From Planctomycetota bacterium (lineage in GTDB: Bacteria; Planctomycetota; UBA8108; UBA1146): DNA of 59,965 nt. The position numbers were made by a program, and so were the translations under genes. Below, piece after piece: positions 3,102 through 14,033 of this stretch. Location: the NCBI GenBank assembly GCA_036338595.1, contig JAYZBV010000053.1:1-59965 (forward strand), read 5' to 3'. Positions within the stretch are counted from its first letter, which is position 1. Each line of letters starts with the position of its first letter. The notes under the pieces are model-generated. The model searched no databases and was not told where the DNA came from. It worked only from the letters and a program-made list of their open reading frames with translations.

Positions 3102-4778
3102 TCAATCGCTCTCACGAGGCTGCTGGGTCACTTTGACGTAGTACAGGTCGGTCGCCACTTCGAAGTGCTCCTGGCCCAGCTCGGTCGATAGGGTTTGCCA
3201 TTCGGTGGTCGGCGAGATCTGCTGCCAGGCATCTCTATCTCCGACCCGGATCGGCATGTCGAAACCCGGTTCGTCCGTCTTCCAGCGGTAGGACACGCTG
3301 TGTTTGGCGTCATCGAAGATCAGTTCGAGAAGCGGTATTTGTGCGTGGCGCAGATACTGATCGAACACCGGTTGGAGGTCTTTCCCGAACCTCTTGTTGA
3401 AGAGTTTCAGGATGTCCTTGGTCTCGATGCTCTGGTACTTGAACGTATCGTAGACCTCGCGCACCAGAGCCCACCACTTGTCATCGTCTCCTAGCACGTT
3501 GCGCAGAGTGTGGAGAAACAACGCCCCCTTGAAGTACTGGTCGCCCGGAGGTTCTCGATGCGTGCCCTTCTGCGTGATGATCGGTCGCCGATTGGAAACC
3601 TTTTCCTGGTAACCGTTGATGTACTTCAAGGCGTCTGCGTACCCGAATAGCTTTTCGACATACATACACTCGAGGTATGTGGTCCACCCCTCGTGAATCC
3701 ACATGTCGCACACATCCGCTGCCGTGATGGCGTTGCCGAACCACTCGTGACCACTCTCGTGAATGATGATGAAGTCGAACTTCATGCTCACGCCGACGCC
3801 GGTCCAGTCTTTACCGAGATAACCGTTGGTGAATCGGTTGCCGTAAGTCACAGCTGATTGGTGCTCCATCCCCGAATACGGAACCTGCACCAGCTTGTAG
3901 CCATCCTTCACGAATGGGTATTCGCCAAAGTAGTGCTGAAATGCCTCCAGCATCGGTTTTGCCTGGGCGAATTGTTTCTTGGCCTTCTTCAGGTCTTCCG
4001 GCAAGGCGTAGTAGTCGAGAGTCAATTCACCGAGCCGATCAGAAAAGTGCTCATAGGCCGCAACGTTGATCGAAACGTTGTAGGAGTTGATCGGATAGTG
4101 GACACGCCACTTCCAGCGCGTGAACCCGTCTCCCAGATCTTCCTTGCCCATGTACCGGCCATTGGAAACATCGGTCAACCCGTTGGGAACCGCCACACTG
4201 ATGTCCATGCTCTCGACCTCGTCACGCCACTGGTCCTTACAGGGCCACCAGTAACTCGATCCAGGCCCTTCGCACGCCGTGTAAATCCACGGTCGACCGG
4301 CCGGATCCTCATCGAAACTGATGCCACCAAAACGACTGCTGCTCTTCGGGGCACCCGAGTAATGGAAGTCGAGACTGTATTTTTCTCCGGCTTTGAAGCC
4401 GTCGGGGTTGTCGACGAATACCGCGTTGAACTCGCGCTCGAAGGGAAGCTCCTCGGAATCGAGCACGATCTTGTCGACCGAGAGGTCGCTGTTCAGATCG
4501 AGCTGGATACGGTTGTCGTCTGACAACATTCGAAAACCAATGGTCACCTTGCCGCGAATCGTCTTGGTCTCGGGCGACACGCGGATGTCGAGGTGGTAAT
4601 AGGTGAGATCATTGTTGGCGCGATAGCGTCCGTACTCGCCACGCAACTGTCGCTTGCGCAGTTTTGTGTCCGGCTCCGGATCCTGGACCCCGGACATTGC
4701 TTCAGACGTAGGGATGGCAGCGACTGCCACTGCTGGATTCGTACAGAGCATCGTCAGCGCAAGTAGGATTGAGGTCAT
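3102..4778 (-). CDS. M1 family zinc aminopeptidase, secreted
   Basis: GMEHQ exopeptidase motif, HESGHEW zinc motif, WIHEG. A signal peptide from MTSILLAL places the start at 4778. Confidence 0.9.
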   Translation of the reverse strand: MTSILLALTMLCTNPAVAVAAIPTSEAMSGVQDPEPDTKLRKRQLRGEYGRYRANNDLTYYHLDIRVSPETKTIRGKVTIGFRMLSDDNRIQLDLNSDLSVDKIVLDSEELPFEREFNAVFVDNPDGFKAGEKYSLDFHYSGAPKSSSRFGGISFDEDPAGRPWIYTACEGPGSSYWWPCKDQWRDEVESMDISVAVPNGLTDVSNGRYMGKEDLGDGFTRWKWRVHYPINSYNVSINVAAYEHFSDRLGELTLDYYALPEDLKKAKKQFAQAKPMLEAFQHYFGEYPFVKDGYKLVQVPYSGMEHQSAVTYGNRFTNGYLGKDWTGVGVSMKFDFIIIHESGHEWFGNAITAADVCDMWIHEGWTTYLECMYVEKLFGYADALKYINGYQEKVSNRRPIITQKGTHREPPGDQYFKGALFLHTLRNVLGDDDKWWALVREVYDTFKYQSIETKDILKLFNKRFGKDLQPVFDQYLRHAQIPLLELIFDDAKHSVSYRWKTDEPGFDMPIRVGDRDAWQQISPTTEWQTLSTELGQEHFEVATDLYYVKVTQQPRESD

Positions 4779-4800
4779 CGGTTTCCATTCCACGGAGGGG

Positions 4801-5136
4801 TCACTGTAGTCGAAGTCCGCAGTCGGGGCAGGTCTCCGATTCACCCGCAGCCGTTCCGCAGGCGGGGCAGGCATCTTCGGCGGCGTTGTCGTCGGAGGTG
4901 CCCGTCGTGGATTCCCACTCCTGTGCGGCCTTCTTTTCCAATATTGCCGCTGCATTCGGGGAATCTTTCTTCGCGACCGCGAGGATCAGTTTCGTTCCTC
5001 AGCCACCGGGAACCGCTGAGATGCTGGGCGTGATCCCGGCAGATTCCAGCAACCGAGCGGCATCTCGGATGCCGTCCGTTCCACCCTGGAGAAGTGGCAC
5101 CCACTCGATTTCGGCTGGGTCTGCAGCTTCATTCAT
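4801..5136 (-). CDS. Small double zinc-ribbon protein with in-frame TGA (putative selenoprotein, GG-U-GTKL); not in ORF track
   Basis: The ATG overlaps the nfo stop (ATGA). Translation: MNEAADPAEIEWVPLLQGGTDGIRDAARLLESAGITPSISAVPGG-U-GTKLILAVAKKDSPNAAAILEKKAAQEWESTTGTSDDNAAEDACPACGTAAGESETCPDCGLRLQ. TGA is at 5001-4999. It fills the nfo-peptidase gap. Confidence 0.8.
4959..4998 (-). promoter_or_regulatory. Putative bacterial SECIS element
   Basis: mRNA after the UGA reads GGAACGAAACUGAUCC-UCGC-GGUC-GCGA-AGAAAGAUUCC. The GGUC apical loop lies 20 nt after the UGA, resembling the E. coli fdhF SECIS loop. Confidence 0.75.
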
Positions 5137-6065
5137 GCTGACGGGCTCTTTTTTCCGAGGTTCTTGCTGGCGAGGCGCTTCAGCAGTGCCAGGTTCTTGC
5201 GATCCATGTCGTCCTCCTTGGGTGTTTCGAGGATCTTGGGGATTCCATCGAATCGAGAATCCTGGATGACCATCTCGAATCCACTTGTTCCGATGAGGCC
5301 CTCGCCGATGTGCATGTGACGATCGAGATGACTGCCGAGGTCGCCCTTGCTGTCATTGAGGTGAAGGGCAAAGACGCGGCGGGCACCGACCGTCTGGTCG
5401 AGTTGCTTCATCGTTTTCTGGTAACCCTCTTCGGTTCGCAATTCGTATCCTGCAGCGAACATATGGCAGGTGTCTAGGCAGGTCCCGGTGCGTTCGGGGG
5501 CATCGATTTCTGCCAGCAGGTCTCTCAGTTCCTCGAAGGAACGCCCCATCGTCGATCCTCCGCCAGCGGTATTCTCCAGCAAGATACGGGTCTTCACGTG
5601 GGGGATCCTGCGAAAGCACTCCCGCATTCCCGTGGCGATTCTGGTGATGGCGGCATCGACGCCGCTTCCGACATGGGCTCCAGGATGCATCACCAGAAAA
5701 TCGAGTCCCAGTAGTTCGGCTCGCTCAATTTCATCGGCGAAGGCATCGATCGACTTCTGGAACAGTTCCTCCTTCGGGGATGCGAGATTGATCAGGTAGG
5801 AATCGTGGCTGGTCACGGGGTAGGGGCCCCACTCCTGTACCGCCTCTCGAAATCGTATCGCCTCGTGATCATGGATGGGTCGCTGAATCCAGCGGCTGGC
5901 GTTCTTGGTGAAGATCTGGAGTGAGCGGAGCCCCAGCAACTGTGCTTCTTCGACCGCTTTCCAGGACCCTCCCGAGACCGATAGATGGCTGCCCAGGCAC
6001 AGCCGTGACGCCGCATCGGGGAAACTTCGTTTCATCTTTCGCTGGCCGGTGGCAGTGGCTGCCAT
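5133..6065 (-). CDS. nfo: Endonuclease IV
   Basis: GSHLS, QIFTKN, HDSYLINL, HPGAH, LENTAG, CLDTCH, HLNDSK, DRHMHIG and ILETP motifs. Confidence 0.95.
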   Translation of the reverse strand: MAATATGQRKMKRSFPDAASRLCLGSHLSVSGGSWKAVEEAQLLGLRSLQIFTKNASRWIQRPIHDHEAIRFREAVQEWGPYPVTSHDSYLINLASPKEELFQKSIDAFADEIERAELLGLDFLVMHPGAHVGSGVDAAITRIATGMRECFRRIPHVKTRILLENTAGGGSTMGRSFEELRDLLAEIDAPERTGTCLDTCHMFAAGYELRTEEGYQKTMKQLDQTVGARRVFALHLNDSKGDLGSHLDRHMHIGEGLIGTSGFEMVIQDSRFDGIPKILETPKEDDMDRKNLALLKRLASKNLGKKSPSA

Positions 6066-6084
6066 CGGACCTCCTCTCTCCAAC

Positions 6085-6752: not shown

Positions 6753-8816
6753 CTAGGCTGCGGAACCGCTGGAGCCGCGCCGGTAGAGATGTCGCTGAAA
6801 TCCCCGGTGGATCAGCGAGATCAACACGACGCCCGCTTCGATCGAGTAGAAGAGCAGCAGCAACTTGAGGATTCCATCGGTGAATCCATAGGAATGTAAC
6901 CCCACTCCGAGCAGGTTCACTCCCCACCAGGAGAAGGCGACGATCATTCCGTTGATCACGACCAGGATGTGAAGGCCATGTTCTCGAACCAGGCCGCTCA
7001 TGCGGGCATGGAGGATGATCAACTCTGCCAGGCAGATCAACAGTGCACCATTCTCCTTCGGATCCCAGCCCCAGAATCGTCCCCACGAGTAATTGGCCCA
7101 GATGCCACCGAGGATGGTTCCGACGATGCTGAAGAACAGACCGAAGCAGATGGTTCCGTAGACCATTCGCGTGATGCTGCGGTAGAAGTCCTTGTCGTTC
7201 TTGCGGATTCCAAACAGCTTGCCGATGAGCCAGACATGGGCGATCGCAGCGGCCAGCAAACCCGCTGAATATCCGAGCGTGACGGAAGTCACATGGGTGG
7301 AGAGCCAAAAATTCGTATCGAGCACCGCGACCAGGCTCGGCATCGTGTCCCCGGCAGTGATCGCTTCCTTCAGTTCGTATTTTATCGAGAGGAAGCAGCC
7401 GAAAGAGCCGAGCAGAGCAGCCATCGTCAACGCAATTTTTCTACGGTCGAATCTTTCGATGAAGAGCGCCGTGATCACACAGCATCCCGTGATGAAGAGG
7501 ATCGTCTCGTAGAGCGTGGTGACCGGCGGGCGACCCTGGATGATGCATCGAAGAGTGACTCCTGTGACCAGTAGAGTGATTCCCAGTAAACTGAAGCCCC
7601 ATGTGGCTCTTGTGGGCAGAATCGAGGTCGGTCGCAACCATCCGATGCAGGCGATCACGAATGCGAGCAGGAAGCAGATCAACGCACGATAGAAGTAATC
7701 CATCTTGTAGAAAGAAACTTCCATCGAGATGGTGCTGTTCTGCCCGTGGTGTGATGCGAGAGTAGTCAGACCATCTCGGACCATGGCAGCCTTGGCTTGG
7801 AATGTGTCTCTACTGATGTCCCTCGCCGCAACCATCGCTTCCATCTGTTTCAGTGCCTCTGCTCGCAATGCGACGGGTTCCTTGAGGAGCGCATCCTCGA
7901 TGACTGTGTCGGCGCGGCCCCAGACCACCGGCAGTACATCCTGTCCCTCTGGTGGCTCATCATTGAGAGGTTCCGGAGGGAACCAGGCGATGCCCATCCC
8001 GGCAATCTGAAGTTGCTGAAGTAACTGGGTCTGAAGTTCTTGCAAGGCATTGACCACCTCGGTCTGACGCTCGGGGGGCAGTTGCAAGATCGATTCCCTG
8101 TTGGCCAGTTGTTCCAGACCATCGACTCCTTCGATGATGGGGCTGAACCCGGTATGGTCCTGGCTTTCGCCGTAGATGGCTCTCAACTCAGGGATCGTGT
8201 CGAGTGGAAAGGTGTGTCGGGCGCTATCGAAGGCGTGAAACAACTCCTCGAGGGCACGGATATTCTGCGCCAGCTGTACCGTCTGACGCTCGACCAGTTC
8301 CCAGTTCGATGGTTCCTTGGTTTCGGTGATCTGGCCTGCGGATCTGAAGATCTGATCGAGAGCAGGAAGTAGCTCCTCAAAGCTCCACCGAGAACTTCGT
8401 TTTCGATCCGACACATCTATACCTGCACTGGTCAGGACCTGCGCATTGATCACCCGGATACACTCGTATCTGCGAGCGATCTCGGGGTAGATCATGCAAT
8501 CGAGCGCCCATGCCACGGGGCCTAGCGTTTCGTCCCCGACCCTCAGTGTTCGTTTGCCGTTTATTTTCAGCATCGTGAAGCCGGCATAGGTATCGAATGG
8601 TTTGACTCGCCCTCCATGCTGGAGAGGCCAGTGAGCGATGGCGTCCAGCGTCTCGCTGGACCACGGAGTTCGCGCGGTGAGGGGCGACTCGGAAGGATTC
8701 TGCACCGCAAGATCGACCGCTGGAGTGCCCTCTACAGCGGGATCTGTTTGGCCCCAGGCGAGCACTGAATGCAACAACAGCAGAGGGATCAGCATGCGGA
8801 GTCGCTGGTTCATCAT
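6753..8816 (-). CDS. ccsA: Cytochrome c biogenesis protein CcsA (System II) with large N-terminal periplasmic domain
   Basis: WWD motif WANYSWGRFWGWDPKE, PPVTTLYE, VLDTNFWLSTHV, GVGLHSYG; N-terminal GRVKPFDT. Confidence 0.92.
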   Translation of the reverse strand: MMNQRLRMLIPLLLLHSVLAWGQTDPAVEGTPAVDLAVQNPSESPLTARTPWSSETLDAIAHWPLQHGGRVKPFDTYAGFTMLKINGKRTLRVGDETLGPVAWALDCMIYPEIARRYECIRVINAQVLTSAGIDVSDRKRSSRWSFEELLPALDQIFRSAGQITETKEPSNWELVERQTVQLAQNIRALEELFHAFDSARHTFPLDTIPELRAIYGESQDHTGFSPIIEGVDGLEQLANRESILQLPPERQTEVVNALQELQTQLLQQLQIAGMGIAWFPPEPLNDEPPEGQDVLPVVWGRADTVIEDALLKEPVALRAEALKQMEAMVAARDISRDTFQAKAAMVRDGLTTLASHHGQNSTISMEVSFYKMDYFYRALICFLLAFVIACIGWLRPTSILPTRATWGFSLLGITLLVTGVTLRCIIQGRPPVTTLYETILFITGCCVITALFIERFDRRKIALTMAALLGSFGCFLSIKYELKEAITAGDTMPSLVAVLDTNFWLSTHVTSVTLGYSAGLLAAAIAHVWLIGKLFGIRKNDKDFYRSITRMVYGTICFGLFFSIVGTILGGIWANYSWGRFWGWDPKENGALLICLAELIILHARMSGLVREHGLHILVVINGMIVAFSWWGVNLLGVGLHSYGFTDGILKLLLLFYSIEAGVVLISLIHRGFQRHLYRRGSSGSAA

Positions 8817-10000
8817 GCATACTCCTTCAACTTTTTCGACTGTCGCTTGCTGTAGGCAAGAAATTTCTGAATGAATGTCGCCGCCATCCCGATCGCAATC
8901 ACGATGCAGGAATAGAGGGGCCAGTGATCCGAGGGATTTCTGACCACAGAGAAGACACTGAACAATTCATCGCCAGGTGCTGCGTTCTGAGGCCCCCAGC
9001 TCGACTGGAAGAGGATCAGTCCCTGGTCTCTGAGGGGGTCGTTCATCTCGATTCGTACACGCCGATCCTCCTGGCCCGTTCGCTGCGTCACATCGCTTCG
9101 ATATTCCTTTGCCGTGGCGATTCCCGCGTGATCGACTTTCTCGAAATTATCGAGCCGGATCGAGAAGGGCATCGAATGACGAACCTTGCGAAGAGCCACT
9201 GCAAAAATCCTGTCTGCGACGGTGAAAGTCCAGGGGTAGTTCTGTCCGCCCCAGAGTAGCGCCTGTTGAGGTCGATCAGATGAGGAGTCTGCAGGAGTCA
9301 TTTCGATCACGAGACCGGGCCGGTTCTGCTCGTTTTCGGCCGCCCGGGGCTGTTCCAGCAGTCCCCAGCCTTCGATGGCGGGAGAGGATGGCTTCCAGTT
9401 GGGTCCGATCGGGAGCGCACTGCAATTGTCAAGTGCGCCGCTGATCTCGAGTTCGAAGGGCAGCCCCGGAACCGCATCGATTTTCACCCTTGCTGCTGAT
9501 TGCCAGCGGTCCTGTGCAATCCGGTGCTCTTCGACCTGAGACTGCCCGGTTTCGAAGACGGCCACTTCCCACTCATGATGACTGATGAATTCGGAGGAAA
9601 CTTGCGATTCCCATAGGCGCAGAAAGCCATCTTCCGAAGCGACCAGCTTGACCAGTCCAGCTGACATCATCACGGCGATACCGACATGGATGATGAAAAT
9701 GCCATAGTTCTTCTTGTTGACCTTCAGGCGCAGGATTCCACCGATCAGCAGATTGATGGTGAAGATGATCATGCACAGCAGACCTCCAGGAAGGGGGAGA
9801 GGGAACTGCATGAAGCTCAGGTCAAAGAAGTGAACCAGCCCCCACGACTCGAAGTACATCTTCTGCACCTGATAGAGTCCATGTTCTGCCTGTTCGAGAG
9901 TGCCCAGGAAGGTGAGAATCAGCAGGAATGTCATCATGACAGTTGCCAGTTTCTGAGAGCCCAGAAACTCGAGCGCTTGTTTCGCGTGAGTGCCCCTCAC
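8813..10000 (-). CDS. ResB/CcsB-like cytochrome c biogenesis protein
   Basis: N-terminal TMs (LTFLGTLEQ; IIHVG with conserved His), PFSIRLDNF, IEMNDPL, FQSSW; abuts ccsA. Confidence 0.85.
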   Translation of the reverse strand: MRGTHAKQALEFLGSQKLATVMMTFLLILTFLGTLEQAEHGLYQVQKMYFESWGLVHFFDLSFMQFPLPLPGGLLCMIIFTINLLIGGILRLKVNKKNYGIFIIHVGIAVMMSAGLVKLVASEDGFLRLWESQVSSEFISHHEWEVAVFETGQSQVEEHRIAQDRWQSAARVKIDAVPGLPFELEISGALDNCSALPIGPNWKPSSPAIEGWGLLEQPRAAENEQNRPGLVIEMTPADSSSDRPQQALLWGGQNYPWTFTVADRIFAVALRKVRHSMPFSIRLDNFEKVDHAGIATAKEYRSDVTQRTGQEDRRVRIEMNDPLRDQGLILFQSSWGPQNAAPGDELFSVFSVVRNPSDHWPLYSCIVIAIGMAATFIQKFLAYSKRQSKKLKEYA

Positions 10001-11148
10001 TGTGAAACCTCCAGCGAGGATACGAGTTTCATCATCGATTCACGTGCAGCAGTTACATCTGCGGTGGGGCCAACCATTTTCACGAAGACGGAGCGATCAC
10101 TCAGTTGTCGGATCAGACCGATCATTCCCCAGTCGCTCTCTGGGGGGCTGCCCATGCTGGAATAGGGACCGGTCCCTTCGATGATGATGGCCTCGCCGCC
10201 GAGCATCTGTGCTGTCGGGAGGGTAGAGAGTTGTTCGGGGCCGATCGGATCGAGACTCAACTCGGCAAGCCAGCGATTGGCGTTGGCGAGAGCGCCTCCG
10301 GCGTCTCCACCGAGAACCGTGATCCAGCAACTGGTTTCTTCATCGATCAGGAAGGTGACTTCACGCATCGGCCGTGGTCCATCGACAGTCCAGCCCTCCG
10401 GGGTGTCCCAACGAAGTGATGGAGGGGGCGGCTGCTGGGGCTGTGAATCGCGTTCGAGCCGAAGCGATGTGACGAAGCGCGCCAGGTTCTCCGCCTCGGA
10501 TTGCAGTAGTGTTCTGGGACCGATCGCCTTCACGAACAAGGTGCTATCGCCAATGGGAAGTACATGAACGGCCATCCTCGCATCCTCGACAACCTTCCCG
10601 GAGAACCCATCTGTGAAGGTACCATCGATCTCGAAACGAACTCCCTCGGCGCCAAGGATGGCAACTGGCGGCAATGCTTGCAGAGCATCATCCGAGATGG
10701 GGTTCTGACCCATTTGCTGGCACCAACGATCGATGTTTTGACGAAGACTCCCGCCACCGGGAATGACGGTGAGGAAGCACTCGCCATCTGGATGACCAGC
10801 GATCAGCACATTGACACGACGCATGGCGGTCGGCGGAGCATCCACCCATCCTTCAGGAAGATCGTAGGCGAGCGCTGGAGCCGATGCAGGCTCCGGTGTT
10901 GAGCCCCCTGAACGCTGACGGCCAAACCGTTGAGAATGCGTGGCTCCTGGAAGAAGCGGATGGACCGCCTCCTCGATCACCCTCACATCATCATATGCAT
11001 GATTCGCCTGAGAACTTCCCGTGCACGAACACAGCATGAAGGCCAGCAAGGAGAGCAGGACCATCTCATGGAACCGAGGCTGTCGCTCGATGGCCGAGGC
11101 CTCTGGCGACTTCGACCATCGAAATAGCTGGTTTCCGACTGATTCCAT
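9997..11148 (-). CDS. Hypothetical (lipo)protein with two tandem homologous domains, ccs-associated
   Basis: Repeated YDLPEGW..AMR / WDTPEGW..PMR, NIDRWCQQMG / NANRWLAELS and FVKAIGP / FVKMVGP; lipobox-like LCSC. Confidence 0.7.
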   Translation of the reverse strand: MESVGNQLFRWSKSPEASAIERQPRFHEMVLLSLLAFMLCSCTGSSQANHAYDDVRVIEEAVHPLLPGATHSQRFGRQRSGGSTPEPASAPALAYDLPEGWVDAPPTAMRRVNVLIAGHPDGECFLTVIPGGGSLRQNIDRWCQQMGQNPISDDALQALPPVAILGAEGVRFEIDGTFTDGFSGKVVEDARMAVHVLPIGDSTLFVKAIGPRTLLQSEAENLARFVTSLRLERDSQPQQPPPPSLRWDTPEGWTVDGPRPMREVTFLIDEETSCWITVLGGDAGGALANANRWLAELSLDPIGPEQLSTLPTAQMLGGEAIIIEGTGPYSSMGSPPESDWGMIGLIRQLSDRSVFVKMVGPTADVTAARESMMKLVSSLEVSQ

Positions 11149-11155
11149 TGAGGTT

Positions 11156-11485
11156 CTATCCGTTGATGGAGGACAACTTCTCTTCGATGGACGGTTTCGG
11201 ATGGGCACCGGACAATTTGTCAACAACCTCGCCATCCTTGAAGAACAGAAGCGTGGGTACGCCCTGGATGGCAAATTTGACTGCCAGCTGGGGAGCCTGA
11301 TCGATGTCAACCTTGCCCACCTTCACGCCCTTGTCGGCGAATTCATCTGCGAGCTGCTCTACCACAGGAGCGATCGTCTTGCAGGGTCCACACCAGGTGG
11401 CGTAGAAGTCCAGCATGGCCACTCCTCCGCTGGCGATTTCCGATTCGAAGTTGTTGTCATCAATTGTCAGCAAATTGCCCGCCAT
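11156..11485 (-). CDS. trxA: Thioredoxin
   Basis: DFYATWCGPCK, 109 aa. Confidence 0.95.
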   Translation of the reverse strand: MAGNLLTIDDNNFESEIASGGVAMLDFYATWCGPCKTIAPVVEQLADEFADKGVKVGKVDIDQAPQLAVKFAIQGVPTLLFFKDGEVVDKLSGAHPKPSIEEKLSSING

Positions 11486-13146: not shown

Positions 13147-13182
13147 CAGAGCCCCAACCTCGATCAGAGCCCCAACCTCGAT
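13147..13182. repeat. 18-nt perfect tandem duplication at the fdhD 3' end
   Basis: CAGAGCCCCAACCTCGAT at 13147-13164 and 13165-13182. Confidence 0.9.
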
Positions 13183-14033
13183 GCCTCGCTGTAGCAGTTG
13201 ATGCCCGATTCTCCGGCAAAACCACACAGAATCATGCCAGCTTCTCGTGCTGTTTCCACTGCCAGGCTCGATGGCGCCCCGACTGCGATCAATGCGTCAA
13301 ATCCAGACACCGCCGCCTTCTGGACCAGTTCGAAACTGGCGCGTCCGCTGACAGCACATACCATTCCGGTAGCGGGCAATCGGCTCCGTGCGCTGAGTGC
13401 ACCGACCAGTTTGTCGAGAGCATTGTGCCGTCCGACATCCTCCCGAACCACGACCGCTTCTTTTCCGGGTGCCCACGCCCCGGCAGCATGGACACCTCCG
13501 GTGCTCTCGAACAAGCCCTGGGCAACACGCAACTTTGCCGGCAGCGATGCGAGCCAATCCGGGTCGTATTCCTGCGTTCCTGAGGATGCAGGAACTCGTG
13601 CGATGACATCCTGGATTCGAGTTCGCCCGCAGATTCCACAGGCACTGGTTCCGAAACCTGATTGGCTCAACGATTCCAGGTCAGGATTCGACCCATCCTT
13701 CAGGATGACCGTGACCACATTGAGTGGCTCTTCTGCACTTCCGTCGGTGCAGTGTGTCACTCCTGCTGGAGATTCGGTCGCAGCCAGCAAACCCTCGGCG
13801 ACCAGGAACCCGACAGCCAGATCGAAATCGTCTCCCGGGGTTCGCATCGTGGTGGTGACGAGTTCGTCGTGGGTGGAGCCGGCATCGTCCCAGCGAACCC
13901 TGATTTCAAGAGGCTCCTCGACCGCGATCTCGTCGAGACCTCTCGGCGAGCGACCGGGTCTGGTTCGGCGCACCGGAAGCCTCATCGATGGGCGATTTGG
14001 CGGTGCGTCAGAAGGAGGTTGTGGTTCGGTCAT
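13164..14033 (-). CDS. fdhD: Formate dehydrogenase accessory sulfurtransferase FdhD
   Basis: AVEEPLEI, TMRTPG, SACGICG, TGGVHAA, EDVGRHNALDK, SGRASFELVQK. Confidence 0.95.
   Translation of the reverse strand: MTEPQPPSDAPPNRPSMRLPVRRTRPGRSPRGLDEIAVEEPLEIRVRWDDAGSTHDELVTTTMRTPGDDFDLAVGFLVAEGLLAATESPAGVTHCTDGSAEEPLNVVTVILKDGSNPDLESLSQSGFGTSACGICGRTRIQDVIARVPASSGTQEYDPDWLASLPAKLRVAQGLFESTGGVHAAGAWAPGKEAVVVREDVGRHNALDKLVGALSARSRLPATGMVCAVSGRASFELVQKAAVSGFDALIAVGAPSSLAVETAREAGMILCGFAGESGINCYSEASRLGL

Follow-up and report, generated by a model that had tools for sequence, protein, structure and literature searches.

The closest described system is 'hypothetical protein DG', which the available part of a 2025 report gives as a deep-Sep selenoprotein prediction from two Desulfosediminicola genomes (PMC12013277) and which is also listed, with a GUxG motif, in the accessible text of a 2026 review (PMC13188914). 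That text also sets out a model of the bacterial SECIS element: a 3–9-nt loop with G at the first or second position, a 4–16-bp stem, a 16–37-nt spacer and an energy of at most -7.5 kcal/mol (PMC13188914). A second point of reference is DUF3343 (PF11823, Se_S_carrier), a putative chaperone for selenium and sulfur trafficking, whose carrier role is presented, in the portion of the source available, as a hypothesis from gene context (PMC5322559). According to the accessible part of its description, BSepDB screened Planctomycetota genomes for known selenoprotein families (PMC13326102), and it may list some of the genes considered below.

The locus described here comes from a Planctomycetota genome and lies in a window of 59,965 nt, by which the whole analysed stretch of DNA is meant. 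When positions 5136..4804 are translated on the minus strand with TGA as U, they yield 111 residues with U46 in the context AVPGG-U-GTKLILAV and a C-terminal end that reads CPACG...CPDCGL, in agreement with the single in-frame TGA at codon 46 reported in the original prediction. The features of the region are:

4801..5136, minus strand: predicted selenoprotein gene, 111 aa and a TGA stop (4803-4801); from translation with TGA as U and from relatives
4999..5001, minus strand: in-frame TGA, codon 46, predicted to be read as selenocysteine; 24 of 25 matching relatives
4968..4985, minus strand: predicted bacterial SECIS hairpin, core UCGC-GGUC-GCGA at 4982-4971, loop at 4978-4975; codes for L-A-V-A
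4903..5106, minus strand: residues 11-78, beta-alpha-beta-loop(Sec)-beta-alpha domain, DUF2007 / Se-S-carrier-like; from AlphaFold, profiles and fold searches
4819..4869, minus strand: residues 90-106, C-terminal zinc ribbon CxxC-x9-CxxC; from conserved Cys and Pfam Zn_ribbon_3
5133..6083, minus strand: nfo (endonuclease IV-like), upstream, its stop overlapping the selenoprotein start codon; from Pfam AP_endonuc_2
3102..4778, minus strand: M1 peptidase gene, downstream (likely start 4778; listed ORF to 4955); from the ORF list and Pfam

The 111-codon frame (minus strand, 5136..4801) does sit between nfo and the M1 peptidase gene, with its ATG (5136-5134) overlapping the nfo stop TGA (5135-5133) in an ATGA, and the hairpin (4982-4971) does place its GGUC loop 20 nt after the UGA (Sec TGA 5001-4999), as had been claimed; the strand is one that the original prediction did not name. 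In plain ORF calling the M1 peptidase frame reaches 4955, across the 3' half of the selenoprotein gene; its true start is likely to be the ATG at 4778, and in L020 and L025, two relatives, the open frame of the M1 gene starts only at the stop of the selenoprotein gene. The plus strand of 4801..5136 is interrupted by stops, and its reading as a gene was rejected. A promoter scan found no promoter, and terminator-like sites were at chance level. Coverage in two RNA runs, of which a small share was used, fell on part of nfo only and not on the selenoprotein gene, and this is therefore evidence neither for nor against the gene. Elsewhere in the window there is a run of membrane genes (6753-11310, minus strand), presumably cytochrome c assembly proteins of the CcsA/ResB-like kind, together with a thioredoxin gene (11156-11485) and an FdhD-like gene (13164-14033).

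Matches to the protein were found in 25 of 41 related genomes, and 24 of the 25 carry a single in-frame TGA aligned with that of the window gene. SelA was found in all 24 of these TGA-bearing relatives and in four of four further TGA-bearing genomes tested. The source genome (G000) has tRNA-Sec (67.9 bits), selA, selB and selD, all above curated cut-offs, so the Sec machinery that the original prediction presupposed is present. The selA and selD genes and tRNA-Sec are clustered (G000:C72:32145-34567) and selB is on contig C108; selD carries its own in-frame TGA (CAG-U-ASK, with a hairpin after the UGA). The same assembly holds near-identical thioredoxin-like genes on contigs C21 and C34 (minus strand), each with a UxxC motif (PW-U-GWC) and an AGUU-loop hairpin at +22; these likely specify a selenoprotein, the second copy perhaps stemming from the 7% contamination of the assembly. 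A small gene on C55 (minus strand) looks to us like that of an arsenate-reductase-like selenoprotein; it has NG-U-TSC (UxxC), and its AGUU-loop hairpin lies at +22.

A search with a 32-row profile returned matches in 46 of 401 genomes of the phylum. Within another class of the phylum, that of genome G083, matches were present in 104 of 151 genomes, and a single TGA in 100 of the 102 full-length best matches; the other two have none, both reading TGG. Cys codons (TGC/TGT) occupy the Sec column in 14 orthologous genes read from DNA, which belong to two families only. In the best 150 of 1,784 representative proteins, both domains are covered by 119 rows: C stands at the Sec column in 80 of these, C lies nearby in 4, and in 35 the loop has no C at all although both domains are kept, with the proviso that some database 'C' could be U written as C. 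Variation by codon position in 20 family genes is highest at the third position both upstream (0.30/0.24/0.48) and downstream (0.27/0.17/0.40) of the TGA. The homologues with Cys or TGA at the site and the conservation on both sides of it, which the original prediction had named as support, are thus both seen. Database products of 62–72 residues begin just past the TGA, and these fragments are an expected gene-caller artefact.

A non-Cys residue at the site had been named as evidence against Sec, and such residues do occur, in the 35 of 119 homologues just mentioned (best 150 of 1,784) and in the two genomes with TGG (Trp) at the Sec column (L063, G083:C59:121625-121954; L111, G394:C75:31396-31722); these forms are a minority, and the Sec call is not overturned by them. 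The two TGG orthologues keep the full SECIS hairpin, occur in genomes with SelA and have close kin with TGA; because the hairpin is intact they are read as recent losses of Sec. Database proteins P0015, P0016 and P0019 likewise show W at this column. Taken together, the loops without Cys and the TGG genes indicate that the residue is not needed by every member of the superfamily. Two irregular loci were also seen: L236 (G476:C2:11221-12616) has a partial second copy about 1 kb downstream with CGA for TGA and an intact hairpin, and L233 (G496:C32:12208-12559) has the TGA and SECIS with the ribbon in another frame, by a frameshift or an assembly error.

In the source genome the hairpin folds no better than shuffled sequence (42 nt, z 0.09; 62 nt, z -0.01), and 23 of the 97,203 TGA triplets are followed at +20 or +23 by a GGUC loop on a stem of four or more pairs. 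Hairpin stability by itself, not significant against shuffles and the genome background, was therefore rejected as evidence for a SECIS; within this one genome the hairpin is weak evidence, and it is conservation that lifts it above chance. In 20 of 20 members of the window's family the four L-A-V-A codons are free of synonymous change, and all 10 of the other fully conserved amino-acid columns between -30 and +29 use two to five synonymous codons. Over 30 distinct segments from 33 TGA genes, 90% of cells pair in the hairpin and five of the seven stem pairs covary by two-sided changes, a result reached by 0 of 500 shuffles and set against 29–60% for slid controls, with figures that are inflated by relatedness and three of the five changes resting on one sequence each. 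At loci outside the profile building the motif is present in five of five TGA genes and none of four Cys genes, which brings the Cys-codon genes with the hairpin to 0/14 (0/10 in an earlier set and 0/4 in the later one). A further 49 loci, of which 8 overlap the earlier sets, have the GGUC hairpin in all 46 TGA matches, in four of them one codon later. Cys and other non-Sec forms were found in SelA-bearing genomes in five of five cases, and in three of five for family f38, so the presence of the hairpin goes with the codon, not with the genome. Family f38 (L039-L047, L067, L121, L122) consists of anammox-type orthologues that lack the SECIS, carry three Cys in the loop (C-STGK-C-x-C in most) and mostly have two ribbons; one database cluster (P0013) is named Candidatus Kuenenia.

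Compared with the bacterial consensus given in the accessible review text (PMC13188914), the window hairpin is alike in its 4-nt loop starting with GG, its 4-bp upper stem and its 20-nt spacer, and its energy is borderline at -7.7 to -8.0 kcal/mol against the limit of -7.5. The borderline value is due to a C-A mismatch under the upper stem, and the hairpins of relatives are more stable. Rfam, searched over 4700-5300 at E up to 5, returned nothing. The hairpin convincingly behaves as a predicted SECIS. Comparison of the genes shows a conserved protein-coding gene with an RNA hairpin under selection downstream of UGA46, Sec machinery in the genomes that carry it, and Cys at the same place in orthologues. 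The conserved TGA, the Cys orthologues, the covariation and the machinery all support the selenoprotein and SECIS call of the original prediction, and UGA46 is almost certainly recoded as selenocysteine.

The curated model NF049953, 'zinc ribbon-containing (seleno)protein DG', matches the window protein at E 1.5e-13 with 51 bits, against a cut-off of 130 bits that was reached in none of 301 genomes of the phylum. The match spans model positions 58-171 only. The N-terminal zinc ribbon (model 1-57) is absent, and the start codon lies 41–45 codons before U in 20 family genes. Of 45 representatives picked from the best 150 of 1,784, 31 pass the NF049953 cut-off, and a profile of 13 of these aligned with that of the window family at 99.6% (E 4.6e-24, 114 columns). 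Both proteins have the same core domain and C-terminal ribbon with Sec or Cys in the same loop and a G-U-G context, and DG, like the window family, is known from prediction only as far as the available text of its report goes (PMC12013277). They differ in length (111 aa against about 170–196 aa for DG) and in that the window protein lacks both the N-terminal ribbon and the partner Cys of DG; the GUxG motif, as given in the accessible review text (PMC13188914), becomes G-U-G-T in the window protein. The SECIS elements also differ, with a GGUC loop and spacer 20 in the window and an AGUU loop and spacer 16 at the DG loci with TGA. Such loci are few: TGA was seen in only 4 of the best 80 of 281 DG loci, so that Sec, usual in these Planctomycetota, is exceptional among the DG loci seen. 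Loci L239-L242 are one-residue loop variants with the DG spacing.

A quick tree placed the window protein outside the branch of the 31 above-cut-off DG proteins (support 90), a tree of 119 columns in which most forks are open and the DG rows are Cys forms only. Without the N-terminal ribbon and the GUxG motif, and outside the DG branch in this poorly resolved tree, the protein is a homologue of DG and not a member by the curated definition. Judged from sequence, the gene is a new short variant of the known but uncharacterised DG family, and the family is not wholly new; the original prediction of a little-described selenoprotein was fair, while its suggestion of a new family does not hold in view of the NF049953 match and the earlier DG report, as far as the latter is accessible (PMC12013277). 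The literature, to the extent that its text was available, held no paper on the Planctomycetota form or on a link between DG and DUF3343, and BSepDB and related listings may include these genes. As the DG SECIS is of another type and TGA is rare among the DG loci seen, it is plausible that Sec was gained independently of DG.

The AlphaFold model of the window protein (mean pLDDT 80, pTM 0.54) has the order beta(12-18), alpha(20-32), beta(38-41), loop, beta(50-55), alpha(56-78), then a linker and a Cys4 ribbon. Sec46 sits in the beta2-beta3 loop of the model, which together with the alignments agrees with the earlier placement of Sec in a Gly-rich loop and not in a thioredoxin motif. The linker (79-86) is of low confidence, with pLDDT under 50, and is modelled as disordered. 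All four Cys of the ribbon are invariant in 32 of 32 aligned proteins, and Pfam Zn_ribbon_3 matches it at E 2e-4, below its cut-off. Within the loop, a second Cys lies within 6 residues in 73 of the 80 C-bearing homologues (best 150 of 1,784) and in 7 of 33 Sec genes; it is absent from the other 26, the window protein included, 20 of which form one family. Cys orthologues have a two- or three-Cys loop, which in many Sec forms, the window's among them, has probably been shortened to a lone Sec. A ribbon-less Sec domain of about 75 residues with the same type of SECIS occurs in three genomes (L232, L234 and L235; G454:C19:27374-27607, G506:C13:255963-256205 and G501:C105:15357-15572), with a CxxxxU loop and the compensated SECIS CUCGU-GGUC-ACGAG, and in G454 and G501 it is a second copy beside the ribbon form. 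The Sec domain can therefore stand alone, as DUF3343 does.

Profile comparison matched the family to PF11823 at 93.3% (E 2.6e-7; 91.7% in a second comparison), and U46 aligns with a Cys that is invariant in 20 of 20 PF11823 sequences. Weak PF11823 matches were seen in 4 of 32 family members; at the Pfam gathering score there was none for the window protein and none in the source genome. A model of PF11823 has the same beta-alpha-beta-loop-beta-alpha order, with a fourth strand and no ribbon, whereas the window protein has the ribbon and not the fourth strand. The match between the DG core and PF11823 reached only 35.6%. None of 21 PF11823 matches examined had Sec at the aligned site, a search by sequence found no solved structure for a PF11823 member, and neither yedF nor Sec lyase was found among 100 + 26 neighbour frames (flanks of 1.5–4 kb). 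DUF2007 (PF09413), a PII-like putative signalling domain, matched at 89.5% (20 matches) and has the five-element beta-alpha-beta-beta-alpha topology in common with the window model, in keeping with the DUF2007/PII-like domain first proposed; a conserved loop Cys was absent from the 20 DUF2007 matches examined, and the DUF2007 gathering score was not reached by the window protein or by any protein of the source genome.

The top structural match was to the PrgK/EscJ ring-building motif (Z 9.9, rmsd 1.4, 57 aligned), and there was a further match to 2hfv, which we take to be a DUF2007 structure (Z 7.0, rmsd 5.6, 72 aligned); the structural neighbours include ring-building, ACT and PII-like domains. 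The PF11823 model also matches PrgK, EscJ and 2hfv, as well as the metallochaperone folds UreE and HMA. For this reason the PrgK/EscJ match is attributed only to a small fold held in common, and a role in secretion was rejected. Foldseek with the window model gave no match at E 0.001 or better. Solved structures searched by sequence gave weak zinc-ribbon or rubredoxin matches only, among them a weak match (E 0.027) of the C-terminal part to the rubredoxin domains of rubrerythrin.

In a neighbour scan covering 100 of 109 candidate frames, nfo adjoins the gene in 7 of 7 family-f1 loci scanned and in 0 of 22 other loci scanned, and the M1 peptidase gene adjoins it in 4 of the 7 f1 loci. When the neighbours of 49 loci were clustered, no cluster extended to more than 7 of them, and neighbours differ between families, so a functional link to nfo or the M1 peptidase was set aside as local synteny. 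The DG gene stands in an xerC-hslV-hslU-DG-dnaE run in most Desulfobulbales loci (L123-L202; clusters in 51–61 of 80, the best 80 of 281). A neighbourhood of selenium or sulfur metabolism was found at none of the family or DG loci scanned.

In bacterial Sec insertion, SelB-GTP-Sec-tRNA binds an in-frame SECIS and Sec is incorporated at the UGA. At this locus SelB would almost certainly insert Sec at UGA46 via the in-frame SECIS, and translation would be coupled to nfo through the ATGA overlap. The product would be a small soluble protein of two modules, a half-ferredoxin (DUF2007/DUF3343-like) domain and a flexibly tethered Cys4 zinc ribbon, the former presenting one exposed selenol on the beta2-beta3 loop. 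This selenol may bind and hand on a reactive chalcogen (as selenosulfide or perselenide) or a soft metal ion, with the ribbon as a structural or partner-binding accessory. That the protein is such a putative small carrier or sensor of sulfur, selenium or a soft metal, and not a thioredoxin-type enzyme, has in our estimate a chance approaching even; a sensor or carrier role had already been raised as a possibility in the original prediction. The position of U46 on the invariant Cys of PF11823, the shared fold, the second Cys in 73/80 homologues (best 150 of 1,784) and the ribbon-less forms speak for it; against it stand the 35/119 homologues without a loop Cys (best 150 of 1,784), the TGG forms, the lack of Se or S neighbours at the loci scanned, the commonness of the fold, the nearly equal match (89.5%) to DUF2007, which has no such Cys, and the 35.6% match of the DG core to PF11823. 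A more specific form of this idea is tentative and clearly less probable: a Sec-bearing branch of the DUF3343/DUF2007 module, near-core in several groups of uncultured Planctomycetota, whose Sec arose independently of Desulfobulbales DG and whose single exposed selenol would shuttle sulfur, selenium or a soft metal. Its own SECIS, the lone Sec and the occurrence of single-ribbon and ribbon-less forms would fit an independent gain.

Somewhat less likely again is that the selenoprotein acts mainly as a DUF2007/PII-like protein-binding adaptor or signalling module, in which the loop Sec or Cys would be a tunable, losable redox or metal switch. Such a role would accommodate the 35/119 homologues that keep both domains without a loop Cys (best 150 of 1,784), the persistence of Trp forms, the 89.5% match to the DUF2007 profile, the ring-building, ACT and PII-like structural neighbours and the housekeeping gene contexts. 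It sits poorly with the retention of TGA and SECIS in 100/102 full-length matches across a class despite the forced L-A-V-A codons, which implies strong selection on Sec, and no partner has been identified.

Most characterised selenoproteins are oxidoreductases, and a small enzyme of this kind, improbable here to a slightly greater degree than the adaptor, would use the selenol to attack a peroxide, disulfide or sulfoxide and be recycled via a nearby Cys (CxxxU), the Cys4 centre (which may hold Fe, as in rubredoxin) or a cellular thiol. The second Cys near the site in 73/80 C-bearing homologues (best 150 of 1,784) and 7/33 Sec genes, and the weak rubrerythrin rubredoxin match (E 0.027), are compatible with this, but the AlphaFold model has no thioredoxin fold, the window protein is among 26/33 Sec genes in all (20 of one family) without a partner Cys, ribbon-less forms exist and the linker is modelled as disordered. 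It is very improbable that the UGA is not Sec but a true stop (giving a 45-residue peptide and a separately started ribbon peptide) or Trp, for although database products of 62–72 residues start right after the TGA, and G083 and G394 have TGG in its place and keep the hairpin, those fragments are the expected artefact, a stop would split one folded domain of the AlphaFold model, 14 genes have Cys codons at the site, the genome has tRNA-Sec and uses TGA as an ordinary stop (nfo and the selenoprotein gene), and the hairpin fits the SECIS model and covaries.

The preferred reading, a putative carrier or sensor selenoprotein, opens no new class of recoding. Because the gene is mis-called as a fragment of 62–72 residues and falls below the DG cut-off in 301/301 genomes, a selenoprotein predicted for most genomes of one class has been missed. 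The 2025 DG prediction, made for a few sulfate reducers, is extended to over 120 Planctomycetota genomes, and the loci offer a natural series of SECIS elements, with compensatory changes, Cys controls and Trp revertants. An orphan selenoprotein is also linked to a putative Se/S carrier through the latter's conserved Cys, and the link to PF11823 makes the carrier idea testable on a protein of 75–110 residues. If the gene does represent a Sec branch of the carrier module, it would provide a natural Sec version of the hypothetical DUF3343-type carrier to test.
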